Made by a program: the position numbers and the translations under genes | Notes under the pieces: generated by a model | What the model saw: the letters and a program-made list of their open reading frames with translations, nothing else | What the model was told of the DNA's origin: nothing | The model's database searches: none | Source of the DNA: Candidatus Geothermincolales bacterium | GTDB taxonomy: Bacteria > Actinomycetota > Geothermincolia > Geothermincolales > RBG-13-55-18 | DNA length: 56,777 nt | Assembly (NCBI GenBank): GCA_037478635.1 | Contig: JBBFMI010000001.1 | Span: 1 to 56,777, forward strand | Direction of reading: 5' to 3' | Part shown: positions 46,190 through 56,777 of the stretch, piece by piece | How the letters are laid out: the number at the start of each line of letters is the position of its first letter | Position numbering within the stretch: the first letter of the stretch is position 1

Positions 46190-48829
46190 TTGAAAAGCGG
46201 CGAGATAAGGGAGAGTTTCCTCCGTTACTTCGAGGAAAGGGGTCACCGGAGGGTTAAAAGCTCCTCCTTGGTTCCCGATGACCCCACGTTGCTCTTGACC
46301 AATGCCGGGATGGTCCAGTTCAAACCCTATTTCCTCGGGACCGCAAAGCCCGAGTTCACCCGGGCCACTTCTTGCCAGAAATGCGTGAGGACGACCGACA
46401 TCGAGAAGGTGGGAAGGACCGCAAGGCACCTCACGTTCTTCGAGATGCTGGGCAACTTCAGCTTCGGCGATTATTACAAGGCCGAGGCGATACCCTGGGC
46501 CTGGGATTTCCTCACCCAGGTCATAGGCATCGACCCATCCCGCCTGTATTGCTCCGTTTTCAGGGAGGACGACGAGGCATACGAGGTATGGCGGGATGTG
46601 GTAGGGGTGCCCGAGGATAGGATCGTGCGGTTGGGCGAGGAGGACAATTTCTGGGATATGGGGACGACCGGCCCATGCGGTCCATGCTCCGAGATCATCT
46701 ACGACCAGGGAGAGGAGTTCGGCTGCGGCCGCCCGGACTGCCGGGTCGGTTGCGACTGCGACCGGTACCTCGAGCTGTGGAATCTCGTCTTCATGCAATA
46801 TAACCGGGATGAGAGGGGAGAGCTGCACCCCCTGCCGTCCAAGAACATAGACACCGGGTTGGGCCTCGAGCGGTTGGCCTCGGTGCTGCAGGGCGCGAGG
46901 ACGAACTTCGAAACCGATACGATCTATCCCATCATCCAGAGGTTGGTCGATATATCAGGCGTTCCCTATGGAAGGGACGAGAAGGCGGACGTTTCCCTGA
47001 AGTTGGTGGCCGACCATTCCCGGGCCTTCACCTTCTTGGTGGGCGATGGGGTCCTTCCCTCCAACGAGGACCGTGGCTACGTGCTGCGGAGGTTGATAAG
47101 AAGGGCAGTAAGGCATGCCAGGCTTCTGGGGATCGAGCGTCCCTTCCTCCGGGAAATGGTGGACGCGGTGGTGGAGACCCTGGGAGATGTGTATCCCGAA
47201 CTCAAGGAGAACCGGTCCTTCATCCACGCCATCGTGGGGAAGGAGGAGGAGAGGTTCTCCCAGACCCTCCGGGCCGGCCTGGCCTACTTCGAGGAGGCCG
47301 TGAACAAGACTATAGGAGAGGGAAGTAACGTTCTCCCCGGGGACGACGCCTTCCACCTCCACGATACCCTGGGTTTTCCCCTCGAGTTGACCGTGGAAAT
47401 GGCGTCCGAGAGGGGGCTGGAGGTGGACGTGGAAGGATTCGAGAGGCTCATGGAAGAGCAGAGGGAGCGAGCGAGGGCAGCCCGGGAAGACAAGGGTTAC
47501 GAGGAAGCATGGGCCGAGGTCTATACCGAGATACTGGAGAATTACGGGCCCTCCGACTTCACCGGTTATCAAACCACCTCGGACCGGGGCAAAGTGGCCG
47601 CCATCGTGAAGGATGGAAGGATCGTCCCCCGGGCCGCTACGGGAGATGTGGTGGAAGTGTTTCTGGACCGCACTCCCTTTTACGCCGAGAAAGGGGGCCA
47701 GGTAGGGGACCGGGGTGTCATGAGGTTCCCAGGTGGTAATGCCGTGGTAGAAGAGACCCGCTACGCGGCGGAAGACCTGATAGCCCACCGGGTCCGCATC
47801 CTTGAAGGGATGCTGGAGGTGGGTCACGAGGTAGAGGCGGAGGTGGATGTCGAGAGGAGATGGGCTATCCGCCGGAACCACACGGCCACCCACCTTCTCC
47901 ACTGGGCCTTGGGCCAGGTCCTCGGTGAGCACGCCAAGCAGGCGGGTTCCTTGGTGGATGAACGCCGGCTTCGATTCGATTTCACCCACTTCCAAGCCCT
48001 CACCCCGGAGGAAAAGGACAGGATCGAGGAACTCGTGAACGAGAAGATCCTGGAAAACCAGCCGGTGAGGGCTTACATCACCACCTTCGATTACGCCCGG
48101 GAGATAGGGGCGGTGGCCTTGTTCGGGGAGAAATATGGAGATTTCGTGCGGGTCGTGGAAGTCGGCGAAATAAGCCGGGAACTGTGTGGCGGTACCCACG
48201 TGAACAGGACCGGGGATATAGGACACTTCGTCCTCTTGAGCGAGTCGGGCATCGGGTCCAACCTGAGGAGGATTGAGGCCCTCACCGGCATGGAGGCGTT
48301 GAGGTATCGCCGAGAGCTGGAGAGGACCTTGAGCCAGGCCACCCGGATGCTCAAGACCGATCCCGCCCGGTTGCCGGAGAGGATCGAACGCTTGCTGGAA
48401 AGGGTAAAAGAGCTGGAAAGCGAGTTGAGGAAGAGGGAAAGTCGAGCGGTGGCCGAGATGGCTCGCCAGGATGCCGCCTGGAGGGAGGAAAAACTGGATG
48501 ACGGGAGAAAGGTCGCCGTCACCAGGCTGGATGGCCTGGAACCCAGGGAGTTGAGGGAGATGGCGGAACGCGCCCTGGCGGCCCGAGAGGCATGCGTGGT
48601 GGGGATCGCCTCCGTGAAAGGAGATAAAGCCAATCTGGTGGTGGCGGTGAGAAAGGAACTTTGTGGAACCGTGAACGCGGTGGAGCTCGTCAGGAGGGCC
48701 GCGGAAGCTTTAGGTGGCGGAGGCGGCGGGAGGCCGGACATGGCTGTGGGAGGCGGCTCCAGGCTGGAGGGGGTTGGTGAAGCCCTGGACATGGTCGCCC
48801 GGCTTTCCTTGAGCCTGCTCAAGGGCTGA
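46190..48829 (+). CDS. alaS: Alanine--tRNA ligase
   Basis: FFEMLGNFSFGDYYK, WNLVFMQY, editing domain HTATHLLH, C-terminal DHHA1-like domain; TTG start after GGGAGG. Confidence 0.96.
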   Translation: MKSGEIRESFLRYFEERGHRRVKSSSLVPDDPTLLLTNAGMVQFKPYFLGTAKPEFTRATSCQKCVRTTDIEKVGRTARHLTFFEMLGNFSFGDYYKAEAIPWAWDFLTQVIGIDPSRLYCSVFREDDEAYEVWRDVVGVPEDRIVRLGEEDNFWDMGTTGPCGPCSEIIYDQGEEFGCGRPDCRVGCDCDRYLELWNLVFMQYNRDERGELHPLPSKNIDTGLGLERLASVLQGARTNFETDTIYPIIQRLVDISGVPYGRDEKADVSLKLVADHSRAFTFLVGDGVLPSNEDRGYVLRRLIRRAVRHARLLGIERPFLREMVDAVVETLGDVYPELKENRSFIHAIVGKEEERFSQTLRAGLAYFEEAVNKTIGEGSNVLPGDDAFHLHDTLGFPLELTVEMASERGLEVDVEGFERLMEEQRERARAAREDKGYEEAWAEVYTEILENYGPSDFTGYQTTSDRGKVAAIVKDGRIVPRAATGDVVEVFLDRTPFYAEKGGQVGDRGVMRFPGGNAVVEETRYAAEDLIAHRVRILEGMLEVGHEVEAEVDVERRWAIRRNHTATHLLHWALGQVLGEHAKQAGSLVDERRLRFDFTHFQALTPEEKDRIEELVNEKILENQPVRAYITTFDYAREIGAVALFGEKYGDFVRVVEVGEISRELCGGTHVNRTGDIGHFVLLSESGIGSNLRRIEALTGMEALRYRRELERTLSQATRMLKTDPARLPERIERLLERVKELESELRKRESRAVAEMARQDAAWREEKLDDGRKVAVTRLDGLEPRELREMAERALAAREACVVGIASVKGDKANLVVAVRKELCGTVNAVELVRRAAEALGGGGGGRPDMAVGGGSRLEGVGEALDMVARLSLSLLKG

Positions 48830-48832
48830 GTC

Positions 48833-49297
48833 ATGGCCAGAGCGATGGGGCTGGACATCGGAGACCGCCATATCGGCGTGGCTGTCTCCGATCCGATGGG
48901 AATGATCGCGATTCCACGAGAGGTATTGGTCGGTTATACCCCGCCCGAACTTAAAGAATATGTCCTGCGACTCCTCCAGGAAGGGATAAGCGAGGTTGTA
49001 GTGGGATTTCCCCTCACCCTTTCAGGAAAGGAGGGGGAGCAGGCAAGGAAGACCCGGGAATTCGCCTCAGCGCTGGAGGAGATAGAGGGCCTGAAGGTCA
49101 TACTTTGGGACGAAAGGCTTTCCTCCCGGGAAGCTACCAGGCGGCTAAGGGAGGCGAATCGAAAACCGGAAGGAGACAGGATCGACGCCCAGGCGGCTGC
49201 GGTCATATTGCAGTCGTACCTCGACGCAAAGGCCGTGAGGTTAGATGTGGAAGAGTCACGAGAAAGACCGGAAGGAGAGGACTCTCACCATCTTTGA
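48833..49297 (+). CDS. ruvX: Putative pre-16S rRNA nuclease / Holliday junction resolvase-like YqgF
   Basis: MGLDIGDRHIGVAVSD, DERLSSREA, IDAQAAAVILQSYLD. Confidence 0.9.
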   Translation: MARAMGLDIGDRHIGVAVSDPMGMIAIPREVLVGYTPPELKEYVLRLLQEGISEVVVGFPLTLSGKEGEQARKTREFASALEEIEGLKVILWDERLSSREATRRLREANRKPEGDRIDAQAAAVILQSYLDAKAVRLDVEESRERPEGEDSHHL

Positions 49298-50297
49298 CCG
49301 GTTCCCGACCCCGAAGTGGAAGGTAATCACCATCGTCGCCTCCATACTGCTGGCCTCTGTCCTGGTCGCCCACCTCGTGAATCACTTTTTCTTCCCCGGC
49401 AAGAACGGCGAGAAAGTCCACGTGGTCATCGAGAAGGGAGAGGGATTGGGTGCCGTCGCTGAAAAGCTGCGCGAGGAGGGGATCATCAGGAGTTCGCTCC
49501 TGCTCCGTCTCTACGCGATGGTGAGAAGAGGCGATACGCTGGTTCTCCCTGGTCATTATCTGTTCGAAAGGGGGATGAGGTACGGGGAGGTCTTGGACCT
49601 GTTGGCGCAGGGCCCAAACTACCAGGTGAGAGTGACCGTTCCCGAGGGGCTCACCCTCCACCAGACAGCCGAGATATACTCTTCGGTCCTCGGTTTCACG
49701 GTCGAGGATTTCTTGGCGGAATGCAACTCGCGATTGCATCCCACCCCTTTCATCGGCGACAGGGATGTCACCTTGGAGGGGTTTCTCTTCCCCAAGACAT
49801 ACGATCTGCCACCGGACGCCACTCCGGGGACAGTGGTGGAGACGATGCTCAGGCAGTTCGAGAAGGAAGCCGCAGAACTGGATTGGGGCAAGGCGGAAAA
49901 ACGCGGTCTTACGCCATACGAGGTGGTAATCGTGGCCTCCATGATAGAGAAGGAGGCCATGCTCGACGATGAAAGGCCATTGGTGGCCGCGGTCATCTAT
50001 AATCGCCTCAGGTTGGGCATGCCCCTCCAGATAGACGCCACGGTGCAGTATGCCCTTCCCCGATGGAAACCTCGCCTAAGCTACCAGGATCTCCAGGTGG
50101 ATTCGCCGTATAACACCTATCGACATAAAGGGCTTCCTCCCGGTCCGATATGCAGCCCGGGCAGGAGCAGTCTCGAAGCAGCACTCGATCCCGCTTCGGT
50201 GGATTACCTTTATTATGTCGCCACCGGGGACGGCGGCCATTTCTTCACCTCCGACTACGGAGAGTTCCTCGAGGCGAAGAAGAGATATCAGCCTTGA
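49245..50297 (+). CDS. mltG: Endolytic murein transglycosylase MltG (YceG-like)
   Basis: N-terminal TM, LysM-like region, catalytic VASMIEKEA, SPYNTYRHKGLPPGPICSPG. The listed start overlaps ruvX by 53 nt, so the true start may be further downstream. Confidence 0.88.
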   Translation: MWKSHEKDRKERTLTIFDRFPTPKWKVITIVASILLASVLVAHLVNHFFFPGKNGEKVHVVIEKGEGLGAVAEKLREEGIIRSSLLLRLYAMVRRGDTLVLPGHYLFERGMRYGEVLDLLAQGPNYQVRVTVPEGLTLHQTAEIYSSVLGFTVEDFLAECNSRLHPTPFIGDRDVTLEGFLFPKTYDLPPDATPGTVVETMLRQFEKEAAELDWGKAEKRGLTPYEVVIVASMIEKEAMLDDERPLVAAVIYNRLRLGMPLQIDATVQYALPRWKPRLSYQDLQVDSPYNTYRHKGLPPGPICSPGRSSLEAALDPASVDYLYYVATGDGGHFFTSDYGEFLEAKKRYQP

Positions 50298-50444
50298 TCG
50301 AGAAAAACGGCCGGCCATAGTCGTTTTGCCTTTGGCCTTGTCAAAAGGATTTTTAAACATGACGGACTTTAATTTCCATCCGATGGAGTCGATGTTGAAG
50401 GAGTAAGGTGATCGCCCGTCAAAGTCACTAAGAGCCGGGCAGAT

Positions 50445-50450
50445 TAGAAT
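50445..50450 (+). promoter_or_regulatory. Candidate -10 element (ATTAGAAT context) ahead of the V4R/hydrogenase-like operon
   Basis: TAGAAT at 50445-50450 in the AT-richer 192-nt gap after mltG. The octamer ATTAGAAT is the same as at the putative pimA promoter. No good -35. Confidence 0.3.
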
Positions 50451-50489
50451 CGAAGAGTCCACTGGCAATGAACCCAGGAGAAAGAAGAC

Positions 50490-50978
50490 ATGGTCGGTAG
50501 CATGAACGGCGCATCAGGCAGGGGGATGTGGCTTGCGGAGACGCTGGCCGTCTTTGGGCTATCCGCTGAGATGGCGATAGGCCCGTCGACGCCCAGGGTC
50601 ATCTACTTCTCGGCCAAAGACCTAGGGGTTAGAGAGGGCAAGAGGTTCGATCACACGGATGACCTCGAACAGGCGCTACGCTGGATCCTGAGAACTGATG
50701 AAGGTCACTGGTCTGTCGTTTTCTGGAAGGATGTGGACGAGGAGGATTTCTGGGAGACGGATGGGAAATTCGCCTTCATCCGCCTGTTGATGAGAGATTG
50801 TCTCGTCAGGGACGCATGCTTGGCGACGGGTATCAGGGTTGGCGGGACCGTCTGCGAAGCCCTTCATGGCTACTGGGCAGGGCTTCTGGAGAGCATTTTC
50901 TCCCGGAGGGTGGACATCTTGACCGAGCACGCCGGTTTTGGGAGCTGCCTTTTGTGCTTGAGGACCACCTCCGGTTGA
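50490..50978 (+). CDS. Hypothetical protein with C-terminal V4R-like (4-vinyl reductase type) small-molecule-binding domain
   Basis: C-terminal VCEALHGYWAGLLESIFSRRVDILTEHAGFGSCLLCL resembles the V4R pattern C-x2-L-x-G-x2-AG ... V-x-V-x-E ... C-x-F. AGGAGAAAG RBS. Pattern resemblance only. Confidence 0.45.
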   Translation: MVGSMNGASGRGMWLAETLAVFGLSAEMAIGPSTPRVIYFSAKDLGVREGKRFDHTDDLEQALRWILRTDEGHWSVVFWKDVDEEDFWETDGKFAFIRLLMRDCLVRDACLATGIRVGGTVCEALHGYWAGLLESIFSRRVDILTEHAGFGSCLLCLRTTSG

Positions 50979-51005
50979 GTCGCCAAGAGGAAAAGGTGAA
51001 GAGTT

Positions 51006-51902
51006 ATGGATAGGTTGGCAATTATACAGCTCGGCTCCTGTGGAGGCTGCCAGCTCTCGCTACTGGATCTCGGGAAAGACTTCCTCGACATCATGGAAAT
51101 GTATTCCATTGAGCATTTTCCGATGATAAGGGAGGGAGAGGAATTCCCGGAGTCTGACCTCGTACTGGTGGAGGGCACGGTGAGACATGCCCGACACTTA
51201 GAGTCACTGAGAAAGGTTAGGGGCAGGGCGAGGACCCTAGTTGCCCTGGGGACATGCGCCGTGTTCGGGGGGGTCCAGGGCCTGGCGAACGTGAGCGGTG
51301 GTGGTAGGTGGGAGGAATCCATTTCCAGGGCTCGTGCGGGCGAGAGCGTCCCGCTATTCACCAGGAGGGTCCTACCACTCGACGCCTATGTGCCGGTGGA
51401 CGTGAGGTTACCCGGTTGTCCGGTGCCCGCCGGGCTTTTGGCATCCTTCCTCAAGGGATCGGCGGAAGGGGCGAGGCCTACCAGGGAATCTGCCACCGTG
51501 TGCGCGGAGTGCCCACTTAGAGGAGGTGGTGAGAAAGGAGGCCCGTTCCGCTTCACCGAGAGGAAAGCCGAATCGGGGATATGTTTTCTGGAGCAGGGTT
51601 TTCTCTGTATGGGGCCACTTACCCGGGACGGTTGCGGCGCCCTTTGCCCCGGATCTTCGGGATACCCCTGTCGGGGATGTCGCGGGCCTTCTGATGGGGC
51701 CTTGATCTTTCAGGAATTGGATCCCATGGTCGAGTCCATCAGGAGGCTTTCCCGCACTGCGAGCAATAAGGATGAACAGGTGGCGGGTTATTTCATGGAC
51801 AGGGCTCACGCGTTTTTCATGTTCTGCGCGGCAGAACCGACATTCCGAGACAGGAGGGTCGGGGGGACTTCTGGGATCGTGTACAGGTTGGGAGGTGAAT
51901 GA
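51006..51902 (+). CDS. [NiFe]-hydrogenase small subunit homologue, group-3 (MvhG/FrhG/HydD)-like, three predicted Fe-S clusters
   Basis: Proximal-cluster motifs GSCGGCQLS, GTCAVFGG, PGCPVP. Distal/medial region VCAECP ... ICFLEQGFLCMGPLTRDGCGALCPGSSGYPCRGCRGP. Confidence 0.8.
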   Translation: MDRLAIIQLGSCGGCQLSLLDLGKDFLDIMEMYSIEHFPMIREGEEFPESDLVLVEGTVRHARHLESLRKVRGRARTLVALGTCAVFGGVQGLANVSGGGRWEESISRARAGESVPLFTRRVLPLDAYVPVDVRLPGCPVPAGLLASFLKGSAEGARPTRESATVCAECPLRGGGEKGGPFRFTERKAESGICFLEQGFLCMGPLTRDGCGALCPGSSGYPCRGCRGPSDGALIFQELDPMVESIRRLSRTASNKDEQVAGYFMDRAHAFFMFCAAEPTFRDRRVGGTSGIVYRLGGE

Positions 51903-51963
51903 GCCCCTCGTTACACCGTGGCCGTGGTAGGCCACTGGGAGGCAGAAGAGGCGGTTGAGAGAT

Positions 51964-53271
51964 ATGGCTACATATGGTCTGGCCAGGGTTTTTGGTGAGG
52001 CCCACCTGAGGGTCGAGGTCGAGGAGGGAGGAAAACCCTCGGTTGGCTTGGCCTGCGAAGGTTACAGGGGTTACGGGATCATCGGCGCAGGATGCCACGG
52101 GGAATTCCTCCCCGACCTCTTATCCAGGCGCTGCGGGGTCGATTCCCTGTATCACAGGATGGCAGCCTGCCTGGCCATGGAAAAGGCCCTGGGAGTGGAA
52201 GTACCGGAAAGCGCCGGGAGGGTTAGGGAGTTGTTATTGGCCTGCCAGCTGTTCCGTCGGCATTCGCTGACCATGACCCTGCACGTACTTCCAGATCTCC
52301 TGTTCCCGGCCTCCGACCCAGGGGTTAGAAACCTGGTGGGACTCTTCCGGGTGGACAGGGACGTGGTGGGGAGGATGATGGCCCTTAACTCTTGGGGGGA
52401 GAGCGTCTTGAGGAATATCTCTGCCCGGGCCGTCCATCCGCTGACCCCGGTGCCGGGCGGACTCACCTTTATTCCGGGTGAGGAGGCCATCGATTGGTTG
52501 AGGAAATCGATCCCCGAGATGATGGGCCTTGCCAGGGAGACCTCGCGCTTGGTCAGGATGTTGTTAAGGCGTAATGAGGACCTGGTGGGAGAACTGGGGA
52601 TACAAGATGGTTCGCAGATGGTGGCGGAAACACCGCCGTTCGGAGGTTCGTGGGTTGGCGTGAATATAGCGGAGTTCACCGGCGAGAGGCGAAAGATCGG
52701 GGCCCTGGATTTGCTGGAGAGGGCTGAAAAGGTCAGCCTGTCCGACACCCTACTGGAGGGTTACCGCGTCTCCGGAGACGGTTACGGGATCCTTACCGGG
52801 CCCCTTTCCAGGATAAACGTGATGGGTTCTTACGGCACCGAGATGGCTGACTCGGAGCTGGAGGAGATCAAGAAGATATGGGGTTTCCCTTTCCGGGGAA
52901 TACTTCTATCCCATGCACTCCGCCTGGCAGAGATGATCATGGCTCTGGAGAAGATAACCGGGCTGATTTCCGAGGCCGATTCCTGGGGGAGGGGGGAGTC
53001 GAGGAACGAAGTCCCCAGGGGAAGTGGCGAAGGGGTCGTAGCCCTTGAGGGAGCGGAAGGCTTGCACCTTCTGAAGGTAAAAGTGGAAGAAGGCTACGTT
53101 TCCGGTACCGAATATGTCGCGCCGTTACAATGGAACCTCGTTGGTATGCTGGATATGCTGGAACGGGAAGGGCAGAAGGTGGGAGAAGACACGGGTGAGG
53201 CTCGATGGCTGAGCAGGTTAGAAGTGGCGGTGAGGGCCTATGCCCCCTGTTTCTTCTGCGCGGCTGGCTGA
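51964..53271 (+). CDS. [NiFe]-hydrogenase large-subunit homologue with degenerate active-site motifs (pseudo-hydrogenase or sensor candidate)
   Basis: Collinear with large-subunit motifs, but RIEGH is RVFGE, RxCGxCxxxH is RRCGVDSLYH, EAPRGxLxH is EVPRGSGEG, PTxWN is APLQWN, and DPCxxCxxH is APCFFCAAG followed by the stop. ATG 51964 (the ORF track lists TTG 51955). Confidence 0.72.
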   Translation: MATYGLARVFGEAHLRVEVEEGGKPSVGLACEGYRGYGIIGAGCHGEFLPDLLSRRCGVDSLYHRMAACLAMEKALGVEVPESAGRVRELLLACQLFRRHSLTMTLHVLPDLLFPASDPGVRNLVGLFRVDRDVVGRMMALNSWGESVLRNISARAVHPLTPVPGGLTFIPGEEAIDWLRKSIPEMMGLARETSRLVRMLLRRNEDLVGELGIQDGSQMVAETPPFGGSWVGVNIAEFTGERRKIGALDLLERAEKVSLSDTLLEGYRVSGDGYGILTGPLSRINVMGSYGTEMADSELEEIKKIWGFPFRGILLSHALRLAEMIMALEKITGLISEADSWGRGESRNEVPRGSGEGVVALEGAEGLHLLKVKVEEGYVSGTEYVAPLQWNLVGMLDMLEREGQKVGEDTGEARWLSRLEVAVRAYAPCFFCAAG

Positions 53272-53297
53272 AATGACGTGGAGGAGGCCTGGCAGTG

Positions 53298-53570
53298 ATG
53301 TCTGAAGCAAGGGTGGAGCTGGATCTTGCAAGATGCGTGGCTTGCCTGGAATGCTTGGAGGTCTGCCCGCGATCTTCCGGCATTGACCACCCCGTGTTCG
53401 ATAGGTCCGAGGAAGGTCTGCCCAAGGTAGCGTATCCGGGCAGTTGCATTTCCTGTCACGATTGTGCCGTGAGATGCAGGGCGATGGCCATACGGATCAA
53501 CGGGAAGTGTTTTCCCCCACCCCGAATGGTCGATCCGGTTCTTTCGAGCAGGATTCAGACCATATACTGA
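53298..53570 (+). CDS. 2x[4Fe-4S] ferredoxin-domain protein
   Basis: CVACLECLEVCP and CISCHDCAVRC (CxxCxxCxxxC twice); GGAGGAGG RBS. ATG 53298 (the ORF track lists GTG 53295). Confidence 0.85.
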   Translation: MSEARVELDLARCVACLECLEVCPRSSGIDHPVFDRSEEGLPKVAYPGSCISCHDCAVRCRAMAIRINGKCFPPPRMVDPVLSSRIQTIY

Positions 53571-53773
53571 TGACCGACGGTTTGAGCATGGATGTGAGTG
53601 ATGTCACCGGGAAGAGTCTACAGCCTCAAAACCTGGTAGCCAGGCTAAACAATTGGGCGGCTTTGACGATACAGTAATAAGCGTTGACCGTGTTATACAC
53701 GAGTAAACTTATGGTAAAAATGGCGTTTGACGAGATCGAGTAAGCATCGGGAATGGGCGGGAGGTGGTAGGTT

Positions 53774-54127
53774 TTGCCGGATCTGAGGAGAGTCCTGGAG
53801 GAACTTGTGGCCACCGGGGCGGTTAAGGCCTGCCTGGTGGTGGGCAGGGATGGTTTCATCATAGAGGCAGTGGGAAGCGATCCCTCCCAACTGGAAGCGG
53901 TGGGCGCTATCGCACCCAGTTCCCTGGGTGCGGCGGAGGTCATCGGACTCGAACTGGCCCAAGGTCCTATGAGCCAGGCCTTGTTCGAGTTCGAGAAGGG
54001 TGCCATCATGATGAGCGCAGTGGGTCCCGATGCCATCCTGGTGAGCATCCTTCCCTCGGGCGCTAACCTCGGGAAGGCCAGGTACGATATCCGGAAGTTC
54101 CTGCCTGCTATCGAGAAAGCCCTGTGA
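53774..54127 (+). CDS. Roadblock/LC7 (MglB-like) domain protein, paralogue 1
   Basis: About 117 aa; AVKACLVVGRDGFIIEAVGSD ... ALFEFEKGAIMMSAVGPDAILVSIL, a typical Robl/LC7 pattern. TTG start after GGAGGTGG. Confidence 0.8.
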   Translation: MPDLRRVLEELVATGAVKACLVVGRDGFIIEAVGSDPSQLEAVGAIAPSSLGAAEVIGLELAQGPMSQALFEFEKGAIMMSAVGPDAILVSILPSGANLGKARYDIRKFLPAIEKAL

Positions 54128-54164
54128 ACGTTGATCTTGTCGATGGTCCAGAGGTGGTGAAAGG

Positions 54165-54539
54165 GTGGCAACCGAGAGGCTGGAAAGGATCAACACGGTC
54201 CTTCGAGAGTTAAGGGCAAACCTTCCCGAGGTGGAAGCGGTGGTGTTGATAAGCAGCGATGCCATGGCCCTGGCTTCGGACATCTCTGACGATTCCGATG
54301 AGGAGATGATAAGTGCCCTGTCGAGTTCCGTGCTGAACATGGGGGAGAGGGCCGCCAGGGACCTCAGGCGAGGGGTGTTGGAGCAGGTGTTCATCAAGGG
54401 TGACCAGGGATCCCTTCTCCTCATGCATTGCGGTCCCCAAGCCCTGCTGTCGTTGATGGTCAAGCCAGAGGCCAAGCTGGGCGTGGTGCTCATGGAGGCT
54501 AAGAGAACGGTAGAGGAACTCTCCAGGCTCTTTGATTAG
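54165..54539 (+). CDS. Roadblock/LC7 (MglB-like) domain protein, paralogue 2
   Basis: LRELRANLPEVEAVVLISSDAMALAS ... QVFIKGDQGSLLLMHCGPQALLSLMV; GTG start after GAGGTGGTG. Confidence 0.8.
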   Translation: MATERLERINTVLRELRANLPEVEAVVLISSDAMALASDISDDSDEEMISALSSSVLNMGERAARDLRRGVLEQVFIKGDQGSLLLMHCGPQALLSLMVKPEAKLGVVLMEAKRTVEELSRLFD

Positions 54540-54590
54540 CCCCGACTCGGTATCCCATGGGATCTGGGAGGAAAAAAGGAGGTAAGATCC

Positions 54591-54989
54591 TTGTCGGAGT
54601 CGCGGGAAGAAAGGCTCAGGAAAGCCCTGCAGGAGCTTATATCGAAGTCAGCCGAGGTCGATGCAGCCGCTGTCGTCAGCATGGACGGATTGGTGATGGC
54701 CTCGGTCCTACCCAACACATTGGAGGAGGATAGGTTAGGGGCCATGTCCGCGGCTTTGCTCAGTCTGGGCGAGAGGACCTCCGAGGAGCTGGGTAGAGGA
54801 GAGCTGGCCCAGGTGTTCGTAGAGGGAAAGGAGGGTTACGTGTTCCTCATGGCCGCAGGACCCGATGCAGTCCTGACGGCCCTGGTCAGAAAGGGCAGCA
54901 AACTGGGATTGGTGTTATACGATGTCAAAGGGGCTGCAAAAAAGATAGCGGAGATAATCGCCTCGGAATTCAAGATTGAGTACGAATAA
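54591..54989 (+). CDS. Roadblock/LC7 (MglB-like) domain protein, paralogue 3
   Basis: LQELISKSAEVDAAAVVSMDGLVMAS ... QVFVEGKEGYVFLMAAGPDAVLTALV; TTG start after AAGGAGGT. Confidence 0.8.
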   Translation: MSESREERLRKALQELISKSAEVDAAAVVSMDGLVMASVLPNTLEEDRLGAMSAALLSLGERTSEELGRGELAQVFVEGKEGYVFLMAAGPDAVLTALVRKGSKLGLVLYDVKGAAKKIAEIIASEFKIEYE

Positions 54990-55093
54990 AACGACATATT
55001 TTATATGAGAATAAATTAGAGGGGTGGATCGACCATCGTCCGGAAGTTCCGCCGTCCTCTTTGGTTTAAAATAATAACAAGAGATGATGAGAG

Positions 55094-56777
55094 ATGGCTC
55101 TTAAGGGCAGTTTGAAGGACTTCAGCCTCCCCGATCTATTCCAGTTGCTGAACTTCAGCAAGAAAAACGGCACGCTTAACCTCGTGAGGGGGAATTCCAG
55201 GGGATATATCTGTTTCCGCAACGGGGAGGTCTTTTTCGCCACCACCAACTGGAAACGGCAATCCCTGGGCATGAAGCTCATGGCCGCGGGACTCATCACC
55301 AAGGAACAACTGGAAGAAGCGCTCGGGTTGCAGCGTACGGAGGCAAAGGGGCAGAGGCTGGGGCAGATCCTGGTGCGTCTGGGATACATAACCCAGGAGC
55401 AACTCGAGGTCTTCGTGGAGGAGCAGATACAGGATGCCGTTTTTGAGATGCTACGCTGGACCGATGGGGAATTCGATTTCCAGCCTGGGGTGGTGTTCCC
55501 GGAGGAGGATATTGGCCTCTCCATCAGCACCGAGGAGCTGATAATGGAAGGCTCCCGGCGTCTGGACGAGTGGAACCGCATCGAGAAGAAGATACCCCAC
55601 CTTGACGTGGTCTTCAGGATGAAGTCAATGCAGGGCAGGGAGGCTGCACAGATTAGCCTGACTCCAGAGGAATGGATGGTGCTCACCTACGTGGATGGCG
55701 AGAGGACGGTCCGCCAGATAGTGGAACTCACGGGGATGAGCACCCTCCAGACCTGCAAGATCCTCTACGGCCTGATCAGCTCCGGTTTGCTTGAAAACGT
55801 TACCCCTCAACCGGAGGAAATAGAAACGGAGAAGAGGTTGGAGGAGCTCGCCCAGGAGCTTGAGCGAGCGGAGCAGGAAGTGACCACCGAGGTTAAGGAA
55901 ACGGAGGTCACGGGAGAGAAGAGAGTCTATCCGGTTGAGGAAGAGATGGGCTTGACCGAGAGGGTGGAAAGCCTGCTCCGGGAGCTGGAAAGGCCGAAGG
56001 AGGAGCTCAGGGAGATCGGGGATACCGAGACCGGTCAGCATGAGGAGACCGTAAAAGAAGCGGAAGACCTTTTGAGGCAACTCGAGGAAGAACGAGAACG
56101 GGAGGTTTATCAGCAGCAGGTCACGGAAGGGTTTGCCGGGGAGATCTCAGAGGAAGAAACCCGATCTTCAACGAGAGCTGAGACGACGTTATCGGGGGAG
56201 ATCTCCCAAGAAGAAGAAGTGGTGGTGGGAGCGGAAGAAACCGAAGAGATCCTGGTGGTGGAAGAGGAGGAGGCCGGGGTCTCCGTGGAGGATGCTTCTG
56301 CCGGGGCGGGAGAGCTGGTCGAGGAGCCGGGGATATCAACCCTTGCCGGTAAGGCCGAGGAAGAACCTTCCGCGGGCATGGCGGTTGAGAGCGATAGACC
56401 AAAAGACCTCCTGAGAGAGAGCCTGGAAGAGGAGAGACGAAGGCTGGAGGAGCTGAAACGACAGACCCTAGCCGATGCACTGGAGGCATCTACAGAGATA
56501 GAGGTGGTAAAAGGCGGCGGAAGGTTGAATGTCCCCGAAGGGCTGATAGATGCTGACGAGACCGTGGAACTCAAACCGTCCCGTCACATCGGTACAGGCG
56601 AGAGAAAGCCCGTACAGGAAGGGGACTTGTTGCACGAAAGCGAGCAAGCCAGAAAGGCGAAGATGTCTTATCTGGCGAAGAAATACGGCATTGATTTTGA
56701 TGAATTGGAGCAAAGGAGAGAGGAAGAACCGAAAGATGCCATAGATACACCTCTTGAAGCAAAGGAGAAAGAGGGAG
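55094..56777 (+). CDS. PATAN/DUF4388-domain protein with helical MshEN/T2SSE_N-like insert and long acidic coiled-coil tail; 3' end outside the window
   Basis: Not in the supplied ORF track because it has no stop. I translated it codon by codon from ATG 55094 (two in-frame TGA codons just upstream) to nt 56777 and found no stop (more than 561 aa). N-terminus [30 protein letters not shown] is the DUF4388/PATAN signature. It continues ...[11 protein letters not shown] and a wHTH-like [30 protein letters not shown]. Confidence 0.8.

Follow-up and report, generated by a model that had tools for sequence, protein, structure and literature searches.

We analysed a stretch of 56,777 nucleotides (nt), here called the window, that makes up the entire contig C1 (JBBFMI010000001.1) of a Candidatus Geothermincolales bacterium, a member of a hot-spring and subsurface lineage, and encodes, near its 3′ end, three tandem Roadblock/LC7 proteins named Robl1, Robl2 and Robl3. 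The last of these opens a conserved trio formed by Robl3, a PATAN-domain protein and a small MglA-family GTPase, and synteny places the GTPase gene, which is absent from the window, in the assembly gap that follows the contig. The initial annotation had noted the Roadblock array next to the redox enzyme encoded immediately upstream, and this co-occurrence does hold class-wide, but the module's ancestral genomic association, and its strongest, is with type IV pilus genes. The fold assignment itself is ordinary and the core trio has already been tabulated, but three points are new in the literature that we searched, where they are absent: the three-Roadblock array kept across an order, its strict association with V4R-like and hydrogenase-derived iron-sulphur (Fe-S) genes, and the gain or loss of these genes as a block together with Robl2.

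The three genes lie on the forward strand at 53774..54127 (Robl1, 117 amino acids (aa), TTG start), 54165..54539 (Robl2, 124 aa, GTG start) and 54591..54989 (Robl3, 132 aa, TTG start), with intergenic gaps of 37 nt between Robl1 and Robl2 and 51 nt between Robl2 and Robl3. Strong Shine-Dalgarno sequences, read directly from the DNA, stand 6-9 nt 5′ of each start (GGAGGTGG, GAGGTGG and AAGGAGGT, respectively), and orthologues in the relatives use equivalent start residues. All three proteins exceed the 23-bit gathering cut-off of the Pfam family Robl_LC7 (PF03259), with 50 bits (E 2.6e-13) for Robl1, 56.8 bits (E 1.8e-15) for Robl2 and 67.1 bits (E 1.1e-18) for Robl3. By sequence they also match the solved Roadblock structures of Asgard MK-D1 Roadblock3 (9JUE), Thorarchaeota Thor-RB (7F8M) and Streptomyces CvnB5 (3LEQ), the last being among the top PDB matches of Robl3 (E 1.6e-17); for Robl2 and Robl3 the matches to the same PDB structures reach E 1e-18 to 1e-21. 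Robl1 additionally matches Thermus MglB (3T1S) and Myxococcus xanthus MglC (7CT3, E 4e-6), which fits the role of MglC as the second Roadblock paralogue of the M. xanthus module. An AlphaFold2 (AF2) model, made for Robl1 only, has a predicted local distance difference test (pLDDT) score of 90.7 and the topology H-E-E-H-E-E-E-H, that is, the full Roadblock sandwich (alpha-beta-beta-alpha-beta-beta-beta(-alpha)). It superposes with a template-modelling (TM) score of 0.93 on 9JUE, 0.86-0.91 on M. xanthus and Thermus MglB and 0.82-0.87 on LAMTOR/MP1-p14. Profiles, sequence-to-PDB matches and the Robl1 model therefore all agree with the three Roadblock frames of the initial annotation, whose coordinates, strong ribosome-binding sites and non-ATG starts were exact.

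These three are the only Robl_LC7 genes in the whole 2.24-Mb metagenome-assembled genome (MAG), and the paralogues are old. Robl2 and Robl3 share 35% identity and Robl1 and Robl3 32%, and no BLAST match was found between Robl1 and Robl2. In the Roadblock tree, the order-specific and very divergent Robl1 forms its own clade on a very long stem, and the class-wide paralogue Robl2 is monophyletic (support 100/100) and nested among Robl3-type sequences. Robl3 is the ancestral MglB-type partner of the GTPase, with identities of 89-94% within the family and order, 64-72% within the class and 52-63% to Coriobacteriia and other Actinomycetota. An Asp-Gly pair in strand beta2 is typical of the MglBs that are coupled to MglA of Groups 2-5 (PMC4316618); Robl1 (GRDGF) and Robl3 (SMDGL) keep this pair, and in Robl2 (SSDAM) the Asp is kept and the Gly is replaced by Ala. 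The same three Roadblocks occur in the same order in all Roadblock-positive genomes of the order (27 relatives and the window's genome), and the complete array was found in 14 annotated loci, so it is not a chance arrangement.

The window ends within the PATAN gene, and motif and Pfam scans of its proteins gave no GTPase. The statement of the initial annotation that none is present is thus true within the 56,777 nt, but the absence is due only to the contig ending in PATAN. In relatives with longer contigs the PATAN gene is followed directly by the gene of a P-loop protein of 177-182 aa; next come aroE, the gene of a PilB-type ATPase that carries an MshEN domain, and the PilT gene. This MglA-family GTPase, encoded two genes 3′ of Robl3 and hence in the region beyond 56777 to which the initial annotation had pointed, is single-copy in 38 of 41 relatives. 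When the relatives' protein was used as a tblastn query, no match was obtained in the window's own assembly. Contig C2 of that assembly, however, begins 62 nt before aroE-pilB-pilT, and in a genome of the same genus (G002) GTPase, aroE and pilB are contiguous, with the GTPase gene cut by the contig end. A blastn comparison of G002 with C2 gave no DNA-level match, the genomes being too divergent, but the comparison worked at the protein level. In five further fragmented assemblies the GTPase gene starts 386-628 nt from a contig start. Assembly thus fails where the PATAN gene encodes its repetitive acidic tail. Based on the synteny of the relatives, on the start of C2 at aroE-pilB-pilT and on the lack of any other candidate partner in the genome, we place the GTPase gene in the gap between C1 and C2. 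Other GTPases were considered as partners and rejected, since a motif scan and a Pfam Ras scan of the genome returned only Era, Der, LepA, IF-2, HflX, Ffh/FtsY and a MeaB-like protein; the identities of Era, Der, LepA and IF-2, the sole other Ras-like matches, are backed by NCBIfam.

The GTPase of the relatives scores 61 bits against PF03029 and 27 bits against Ras, and Thermus MglA ranks second among its PDB matches. Its 68 orthologues share, almost without variation, the motifs GxxxxGKTT, TTVAMDFG and GTPGQxRFxFMW, the exception being the locus L056, which reads GTPGL. MglA proteins of Groups 2-5 are recognized by GTPGQ in G3 and by a Thr in place of the arginine finger of G2 (PMC4316618), and the family bears this signature, with GTPGQ in switch II, TT in G2 and no intrinsic Arg finger. 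The hallmarks of Group 1 MglA, TVPGQ in G3 and an intrinsic Arg finger beside the G2 Thr, are absent, as the protein reads GTPGQ and TT at these positions. The NKxD motif of G4, which confers guanine specificity, is degenerate in the family (for example in L028, 14039-14572), with [NT][KR] kept and no fixed Asp; from this, the nucleotide specificity of the GTPase may be relaxed.

The GTPase and Robl3 flank a PATAN/DUF4388 protein whose gene runs from 55094 to the contig end at 56777 on the forward strand, leaving more than 561 aa of the product in the window (Pfam DUF4388, 131.5 bits). Its length is 790-1465 aa in relatives of the same order and 363-1465 aa over all lineages. A helical insert matches the NCBIfam model NF053729, a tandem MshEN-type (MshE-related) cyclic di-GMP (c-di-GMP)-binding motif, with 53.6 bits (cut-off 38) at residues 58-111, and this insert probably binds c-di-GMP. 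In the PatA-type regulators of cyanobacteria, the PATAN domain suffices for the output and binds the pilus motor proteins PilB1 and PilC (10.1101/2021.06.11.447907). The domain is followed here by a weak winged helix-turn-helix (wHTH)-like segment (HTH_27, E 0.004) and by the long acidic tail. In all lineages the protein ends, after a hypervariable acidic or proline-rich linker, in a conserved helix-like motif of about 20 residues (...V.K.l.lkiI.Gi.kL), which could be a membrane-binding or partner-binding peptide.

To determine how general this arrangement is, 91 loci were annotated with the cassette proteins, and the Roadblocks were re-counted with a profile built from all copies. Robl3 is directly 5′ of PATAN in every locus that reaches that stretch, and the trio is present wherever the contig reaches, with the exception of L099, L103 and L116, which have no PATAN gene, and of L062 and L108, where the GTPase has been lost. 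Across these loci Robl3-PATAN-GTPase is the ancestral unit, and Roadblock and MglA-family GTPase genes are adjacent in the relatives, L062 and L108 excepted. The distant Robl3 homologues belong to Coriobacteriia and to MAGs labelled Frankiales or Mycobacteriales, and the trio always lies within the alaS-ruvX-mltG...aroE-pil region. In Coriobacteriia-type loci the order is aroE, PilB′, Robl, PATAN, GTPase, one unknown gene, PilB, PilT, PilC, pilin and PilD, and in the Frankiales- or Mycobacteriales-labelled MAGs it is aroE, Robl, PATAN, GTPase, PilB and PilT. Most Geothermincolia have mltG, V4R-like, HydS-like, HydL-like, Fd, Robl2, Robl3, PATAN, GTPase, aroE, PilB, PilT and PilC, and the window's order has the same layout plus Robl1 before Robl2. 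The module thus follows aroE in Coriobacteriia-type loci, whereas in Geothermincolia it lies, with the hydrogenase-like genes, between mltG and aroE, and aroE alone separates the GTPase from pilB-pilT-pilC. In the window's genome PilB, PilT and PilC are encoded on C2, and a PilD-like gene is on contig C244.

Several side observations concern these loci. The cassette interrupts what appears to be a housekeeping run, alaS-ruvX-mltG...aroE (window 46190-50297; C2 63-3796). Coriobacteriia-type loci carry a second PilB-like ATPase (MshEN and T2SSE) directly 5′ of the Roadblock gene (L034, 8022-9668; L035, 8167-9846), and an unannotated protein of 422-616 aa is encoded between the GTPase and the main pilB (L034, 13323-15173; L035, 13061-14329). 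In MAGs labelled Thiotrichales a GTPase gene is paired with a Robl3-like gene and PATAN is missing, and in a Chloroflexi MAG the Robl3-like gene stands by itself (these are L099, L103 and L116). In the tree, the Roadblocks of these three loci are placed close to the base of the Robl2 clade, a position that may say something about where Robl2 came from or may reflect long-branch attraction.

The gene set upstream of the Roadblocks, also on the forward strand, begins with a V4R-like gene (50490..50978), which encodes a 162-aa protein of the V4R/Bet3(TRAPPC3) fold and is present in every locus with HydL-like. The protein has no Pfam or NCBIfam match. Its AF2 model (pLDDT 77.8) is closest in Foldseek to the V4R sensor domains of MopR, PoxR and DmpR (TM score on the query (TMq) 0.61-0.64, E 6e-5), followed by TRAPP Bet3, TPC6 and Thor-TRAPPC3 (TMq 0.5-0.6). 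Residues C104, C122, H126, H147 and C153 are invariant in 13 orthologues and are a possible Zn or other metal site like that of PoxR/MopR; the protein is a possible ligand or metal sensor. The second gene, HydS-like (51006..51902), encodes an Fe-S protein resembling the [NiFe]-hydrogenase small subunit (VhuG/MvhG-like; Pfam Oxidored_q6, 88 bits), which scores 157 bits against NCBIfam VhuG, far under the cut-off of 450. HydL-like (51955..53271) resembles the large subunit (Pfam NiFeSe_Hases, 32 bits; VhuA, 134 bits with a cut-off of 800), and its metal-site motifs are altered, reading RRCGVDSLYH and, at the C-terminus, APCFFCAAG-stop in the translation. The set is closed by the gene of a 2x[4Fe-4S] ferredoxin (Fd, 53295..53570), which matches several Fer4 Pfam families. 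A word-indexed search for the HydL-like family returned only 19 proteins because the family diverges fast, and its nearest outgroup, at about 25% identity, has no Roadblock neighbours.

The number of Roadblocks follows the presence of this set. Extra Roadblocks were found in all 21 loci with HydL-like (two Roadblocks in 7 loci and three in 14) and in 0 of the 66 loci that lack it, each of which has one; four apparent exceptions are loci cut just 5′ of the Roadblocks. Robl2 is class-wide in Geothermincolia and Robl1 order-wide. The Roadblock homologues thus co-occur with GTPases as well as with hydrogenase-like genes, in contrast to the pattern that the initial annotation gave as fatal to its proposal. 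In the AlaS tree the three-Roadblock genomes form one clade (100/99) and the two-Roadblock genomes another, with L056, which has one Roadblock, no hydrogenase-like genes and a derived mltG-aroE position, as sister to the two-Roadblock clade (100/100). The Robl3 sequences of L056, L062 and L108 fall, on long branches, inside the Geothermincolia Robl3 clade of the Roadblock tree (96/96; subclade 99/100), and V4R-HydS-HydL-Fd-Robl2 are jointly absent in all three loci. Because these loci miss the whole block and yet group with the two-Roadblock clade, the block was gained or lost as a unit at least once beyond the founding event. The switch has also decayed in them: in L056 (14684-15223) the GTPGL motif of the GTPase has lost the catalytic Gln, and in L062 (1726-5361) and L108 (3094-6694) PATAN runs straight to aroE and the GTPase is gone. 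These results support a functional coupling of the extra Roadblocks to the hydrogenase-like set.

The two gene sets differ in how fast they change. Identities to the window across the order are 38% for HydL (38-46% for the hydrogenase-like proteins), 65% for AlaS, about 85% for Robl1, about 71% for Robl2, about 91% for Robl3 and 86% for the PATAN N-domain. Within the genus they are 56% for HydL and Fd, 58% for V4R-like, 69% for HydS and 80% for AlaS, versus 95%, 91%, 96% and 94% for Robl1, Robl2, Robl3 and the PATAN N-domain, respectively. Such values point to strong purifying selection on all the signalling parts. The sets are separated on the forward strand by the largest intergenic gap of the array, 203 nt from Fd to Robl1 (53571..53773), as compared with 23-104 nt elsewhere within the two sets and 116-643 nt at this site in the relatives; it is a probable boundary between two transcription units. 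Neither a terminator nor a promoter is called between Fd and Robl1 in the window, and an Rfam search of 50200-56777 gave one sub-threshold chance match and none in the gap. In most family members (the equivalents in L039, L041, L043, L045, L047 and L048) the gap carries a conserved block, CCATTGGAG-17-TATAAT...AGCAACAG, about 150 nt 5′ of Robl1, which is unrecognisable in the window or its genus and is not called in the relatives by the promoter scanner.

We favour, with slightly better than even confidence, a Roadblock platform that regulates one pilus-controlling GTPase, with the extra paralogues passing on a redox or ligand state. From the folds, gene order, co-occurrence and conservation observed here, we infer the physical interactions, the GTPase-activating (GAP) or nucleotide-exchange (GEF) activity, the pilus output and the redox input of such a platform, which would work as follows. 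MglB dimers cover the switch regions of MglA and act as GAP. Robl3 would be the cognate regulator of the GTPase, its dimers binding the switch regions and setting the GTP/GDP state. The GTP-bound GTPase and PATAN, modulated by c-di-GMP, would then switch pilus extension on or off, or position the extension motor, a role for which there is a precedent in M. xanthus, where MglA directs the localisation of PilB through SgmX (PMC11580455). A single Roadblock became two in Geothermincolia and three in the Solincola/Geothermincola order, alongside the arrival of the V4R-like protein, the Fe-S pair and the ferredoxin upstream. Robl2 and Robl1 could form extra homo- or heterodimers, competing with Robl3 or stacking on it, after the manner of MglC on MglB or of the LAMTOR dimers within Ragulator. 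That the GTPase cycle responds through these dimers to the redox or ligand state of the V4R/Fe-S module is the more tentative part of the proposal, and we regard a redox input to the switch through Robl1 and Robl2 as possible, at well below even confidence.

Several points weigh against this platform. The GTPase gene lies outside the present assembly, and its presence is deduced from synteny and from the same-genus genome; its guanine-specificity motif is degenerate, and the Gly of the conserved D-G pair is missing in Robl2. The 203-nt gap separates the redox and Roadblock gene sets, and the TATAAT block of the relatives suggests a separate promoter with a long leader. The hydrogenase-like proteins evolve far faster than the Roadblocks, which is unexpected for tight physical partners. 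In addition, the hydrogenase link amounts to only one or two evolutionary events in one class, so that the 21-versus-66 pattern could for the most part be due to shared ancestry. In Geothermincolia the housekeeping gene aroE stands between the GTPase and pilB, and the entire alaS-ruvX-mltG...aroE region is a conserved block of housekeeping genes, so that the pilus adjacency could be partly historical.

The likeliest alternative, which we nevertheless consider rather unlikely, is that the two gene sets are functionally unrelated neighbours. A four-gene redox operon would have been inserted between mltG and the GTPase module in the ancestor of Geothermincolia, and Robl1 and Robl2 would be ordinary expansions of the GTPase module, for example an MglC-like adaptor and a co-GAP, and would receive no redox input. 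The largest gap falls exactly between Fd and the first Roadblock, with the TATAAT block there in relatives, the rates differ (38% for HydL against 91% for Robl3 across the order), the trio occurs without hydrogenase-like genes in most Actinomycetota, and the nearest outgroup of the hydrogenase family lacks Roadblock neighbours. On the other hand, extra Roadblocks are found exactly where the hydrogenase-like genes are (87 informative loci) and the joint absence in L056, L062 and L108 follows the same rule; all the genes are on the same strand with no terminator-like site found, and the adjacency has been held class-wide although the surrounding proteins have diverged to about 30% identity.

The restriction of Robl1 and Robl2 to loci with the hydrogenase-like genes could also mean that one or both are subunits, or assembly or regulatory factors, of the Fe-S complex, with Robl3 alone regulating the GTPase. 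Roadblock folds are general protein-protein platforms (dynein LC7 and Rv3364c are among the PDB matches), and the extreme divergence of Robl1 from Robl3 would suit a separate function. This explanation appears improbable to us: both genes are packed against Robl3 and stand across the 203-nt gap from Fd, Robl1 keeps the D-G pair reported for GTPase-coupled MglBs (PMC4316618), and the rates of Robl1 and Robl2 match those of the signalling proteins, not those of the hydrogenase-like proteins.

More improbable still is a system like the conservons (CvnA-D) of the actinobacteria, or a target other than the pilus, such as cell-wall growth or division, development or transcription. The lineage is actinobacterial, Robl3 and Robl1 match CvnB5 (3LEQ) strongly, the GTPase shares with CvnD-type proteins a match to PF03029, the module of Geothermincolia has mltG as its neighbour upstream, and a weak wHTH-like segment follows the PATAN domain. 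There is, however, neither a histidine kinase nor a DUF742 protein, a PATAN protein being in their place, and in lineages whose trio lies elsewhere than next to mltG, it is surrounded by pilB, pilT, pilC, pilin and pilD. DUF742 (PF05331) did not exceed its cut-off in the window's genome or in 20 relatives, a result without a positive control, as 14 control genomes likewise gave none. A CvnA-type histidine kinase was looked for in the Pfam annotation of every gene in L034, L035 and L037, where no kinase domain appears, and the genes of the window are all accounted for. A role of the GTPase and Roadblocks in hydrogenase maturation was rejected, since the trio occurs without a hydrogenase-like gene in most lineages.

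A more elaborate form of the favoured platform would be a Ragulator-like sensor-switch, in which the Fe-S module and the V4R sensor report H2, redox state or a small molecule through Robl1 and Robl2, remodelling the Robl3-GTPase complex so that the GTPase, with the c-di-GMP-binding PATAN protein as scaffold, steers the activity of the pili. We regard this as doubtful. If true, surface motility or attachment of anaerobic subsurface Actinomycetota would in effect be guided by redox state or H2, and prokaryotes would offer a case in which several Roadblock subunits that differ from one another integrate a metabolic signal on a single small GTPase.

The significance of the module depends only in part on this coupling. 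Small Ras-like GTPases and their Roadblock regulators are the core of Myxococcus cell polarity and the evolutionary root of the eukaryotic Rag/Ragulator and TRAPP logic, and to our knowledge almost nothing outside Group 1 MglA has been tested. Throughout Actinomycetota, monoderms in which pilus regulation is largely uncharacterised, the widespread trio is linked to type IV pilus genes, and it can expand stepwise into a three-Roadblock platform, an expansion that tracks the gain of a V4R sensor and of a catalytically remodelled hydrogenase. If the coupling is true, the array offers a natural system for multi-Roadblock signal integration, and it would also point to a function for a protein that derives from a hydrogenase but has no evident enzymatic role. 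If it is false, the three genes are still assigned and the 'missing' GTPase is explained.

The closest known arrangement is the Group 5 'MglB>PATAN>MglA' trio listed in Table S2 of Wuichet and Sogaard-Andersen (2014, PMC4316618), for example for Acidothermus cellulolyticus (Acel_1323), for several Aquificae, among them Aquifex (aq_1844), Hydrogenobacter and Persephonella, and for Roseiflexus. The Group 5 rows of that table never have more than one MglB, and the trios are tabulated only, with no function, pilus linkage or experiment (PMC4316618). By gene order and by the motifs of Groups 2-5 we assign Robl3-PATAN-GTPase to this type, with which it shares the gene order, a GTPase of about 175-195 aa with GTPGQ and no G2 Arg finger, and the D-G pair of the Roadblock partner. 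It differs in having three Roadblocks and the upstream V4R-like, hydrogenase-derived and ferredoxin genes, as well as in its giant PATAN protein of up to 1465 aa, in which an acidic linker leads to a C-terminal helix that is conserved.

The MglA-MglB polarity module known from M. xanthus and Thermus thermophilus, whose further members are RomR/RomX, RomY, the PilB effector SgmX and a second Roadblock paralogue, MglC, likewise combines a Ras-like GTPase with a Roadblock dimer and has more than one Roadblock in one system. The output of the M. xanthus polarity module is pilus extension through PilB (PMC11580455), and a pilus output is what we propose here. In contrast to Group 1 MglA, with its TVPGQ motif and Arg finger, the present family has GTPGQ and TT, so that the catalytic mechanism is likely different (PMC4316618). 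No counterparts of RomR, RomX or SgmX were identified here, the regulators are encoded beside the pilus genes, and the PATAN protein is obligate.

The conservons of Streptomyces and Mycobacterium (CvnA-CvnB-CvnC-CvnD; MfpX/MfpB) share with our module an actinobacterial Roadblock and a Group 2-5-type GTPase matching PF03029. The initial annotation had compared the array with these systems through CvnB, but this comparison does not hold, since the CvnA kinase and CvnC/DUF742 are missing and the module is of the MglB>PATAN>MglA type, with PATAN instead, three Roadblocks per GTPase and a link to pilus genes. The PATAN domain with its helical insert and the genomic link to pilB are in turn shared with the cyanobacterial PatA-type (PATAN-CheY) proteins PixG, PixE and PilG. 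In Synechocystis this domain by itself is enough to bind PilB1, to reach the membrane and to turn phototaxis around (10.1101/2021.06.11.447907). Unlike these proteins, the one described here has no CheY receiver, and its input would come from the GTPase/Roadblock switch, and possibly from c-di-GMP, not from phosphorylation.

A resemblance of parts also extends to eukaryotic and Asgard multi-Roadblock platforms such as Ragulator (LAMTOR2/3 and 4/5 with the Rag GTPases) and TRAPP (Bet3-family and longin proteins, a Rab GEF), in which, as proposed here, several Roadblock folds serve one GTPase system, and the array also contains a gene of the V4R/Bet3 fold. Asgard Roadblocks and LAMTOR/MP1-p14 are among the structures that Robl1-3 match best, and the set of Roadblock, longin and Bet3/V4R-type folds has been discussed together (PMC10933270). 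The matching parts are three Roadblock folds and one V4R/Bet3 fold, and the V4R-like protein is closer to the V4R domains of bacterial phenol sensors than to Bet3. Ragulator and TRAPP belong to eukaryotic GTPase systems, whereas the module described here is bacterial and pilus-linked, with no role in membrane trafficking.

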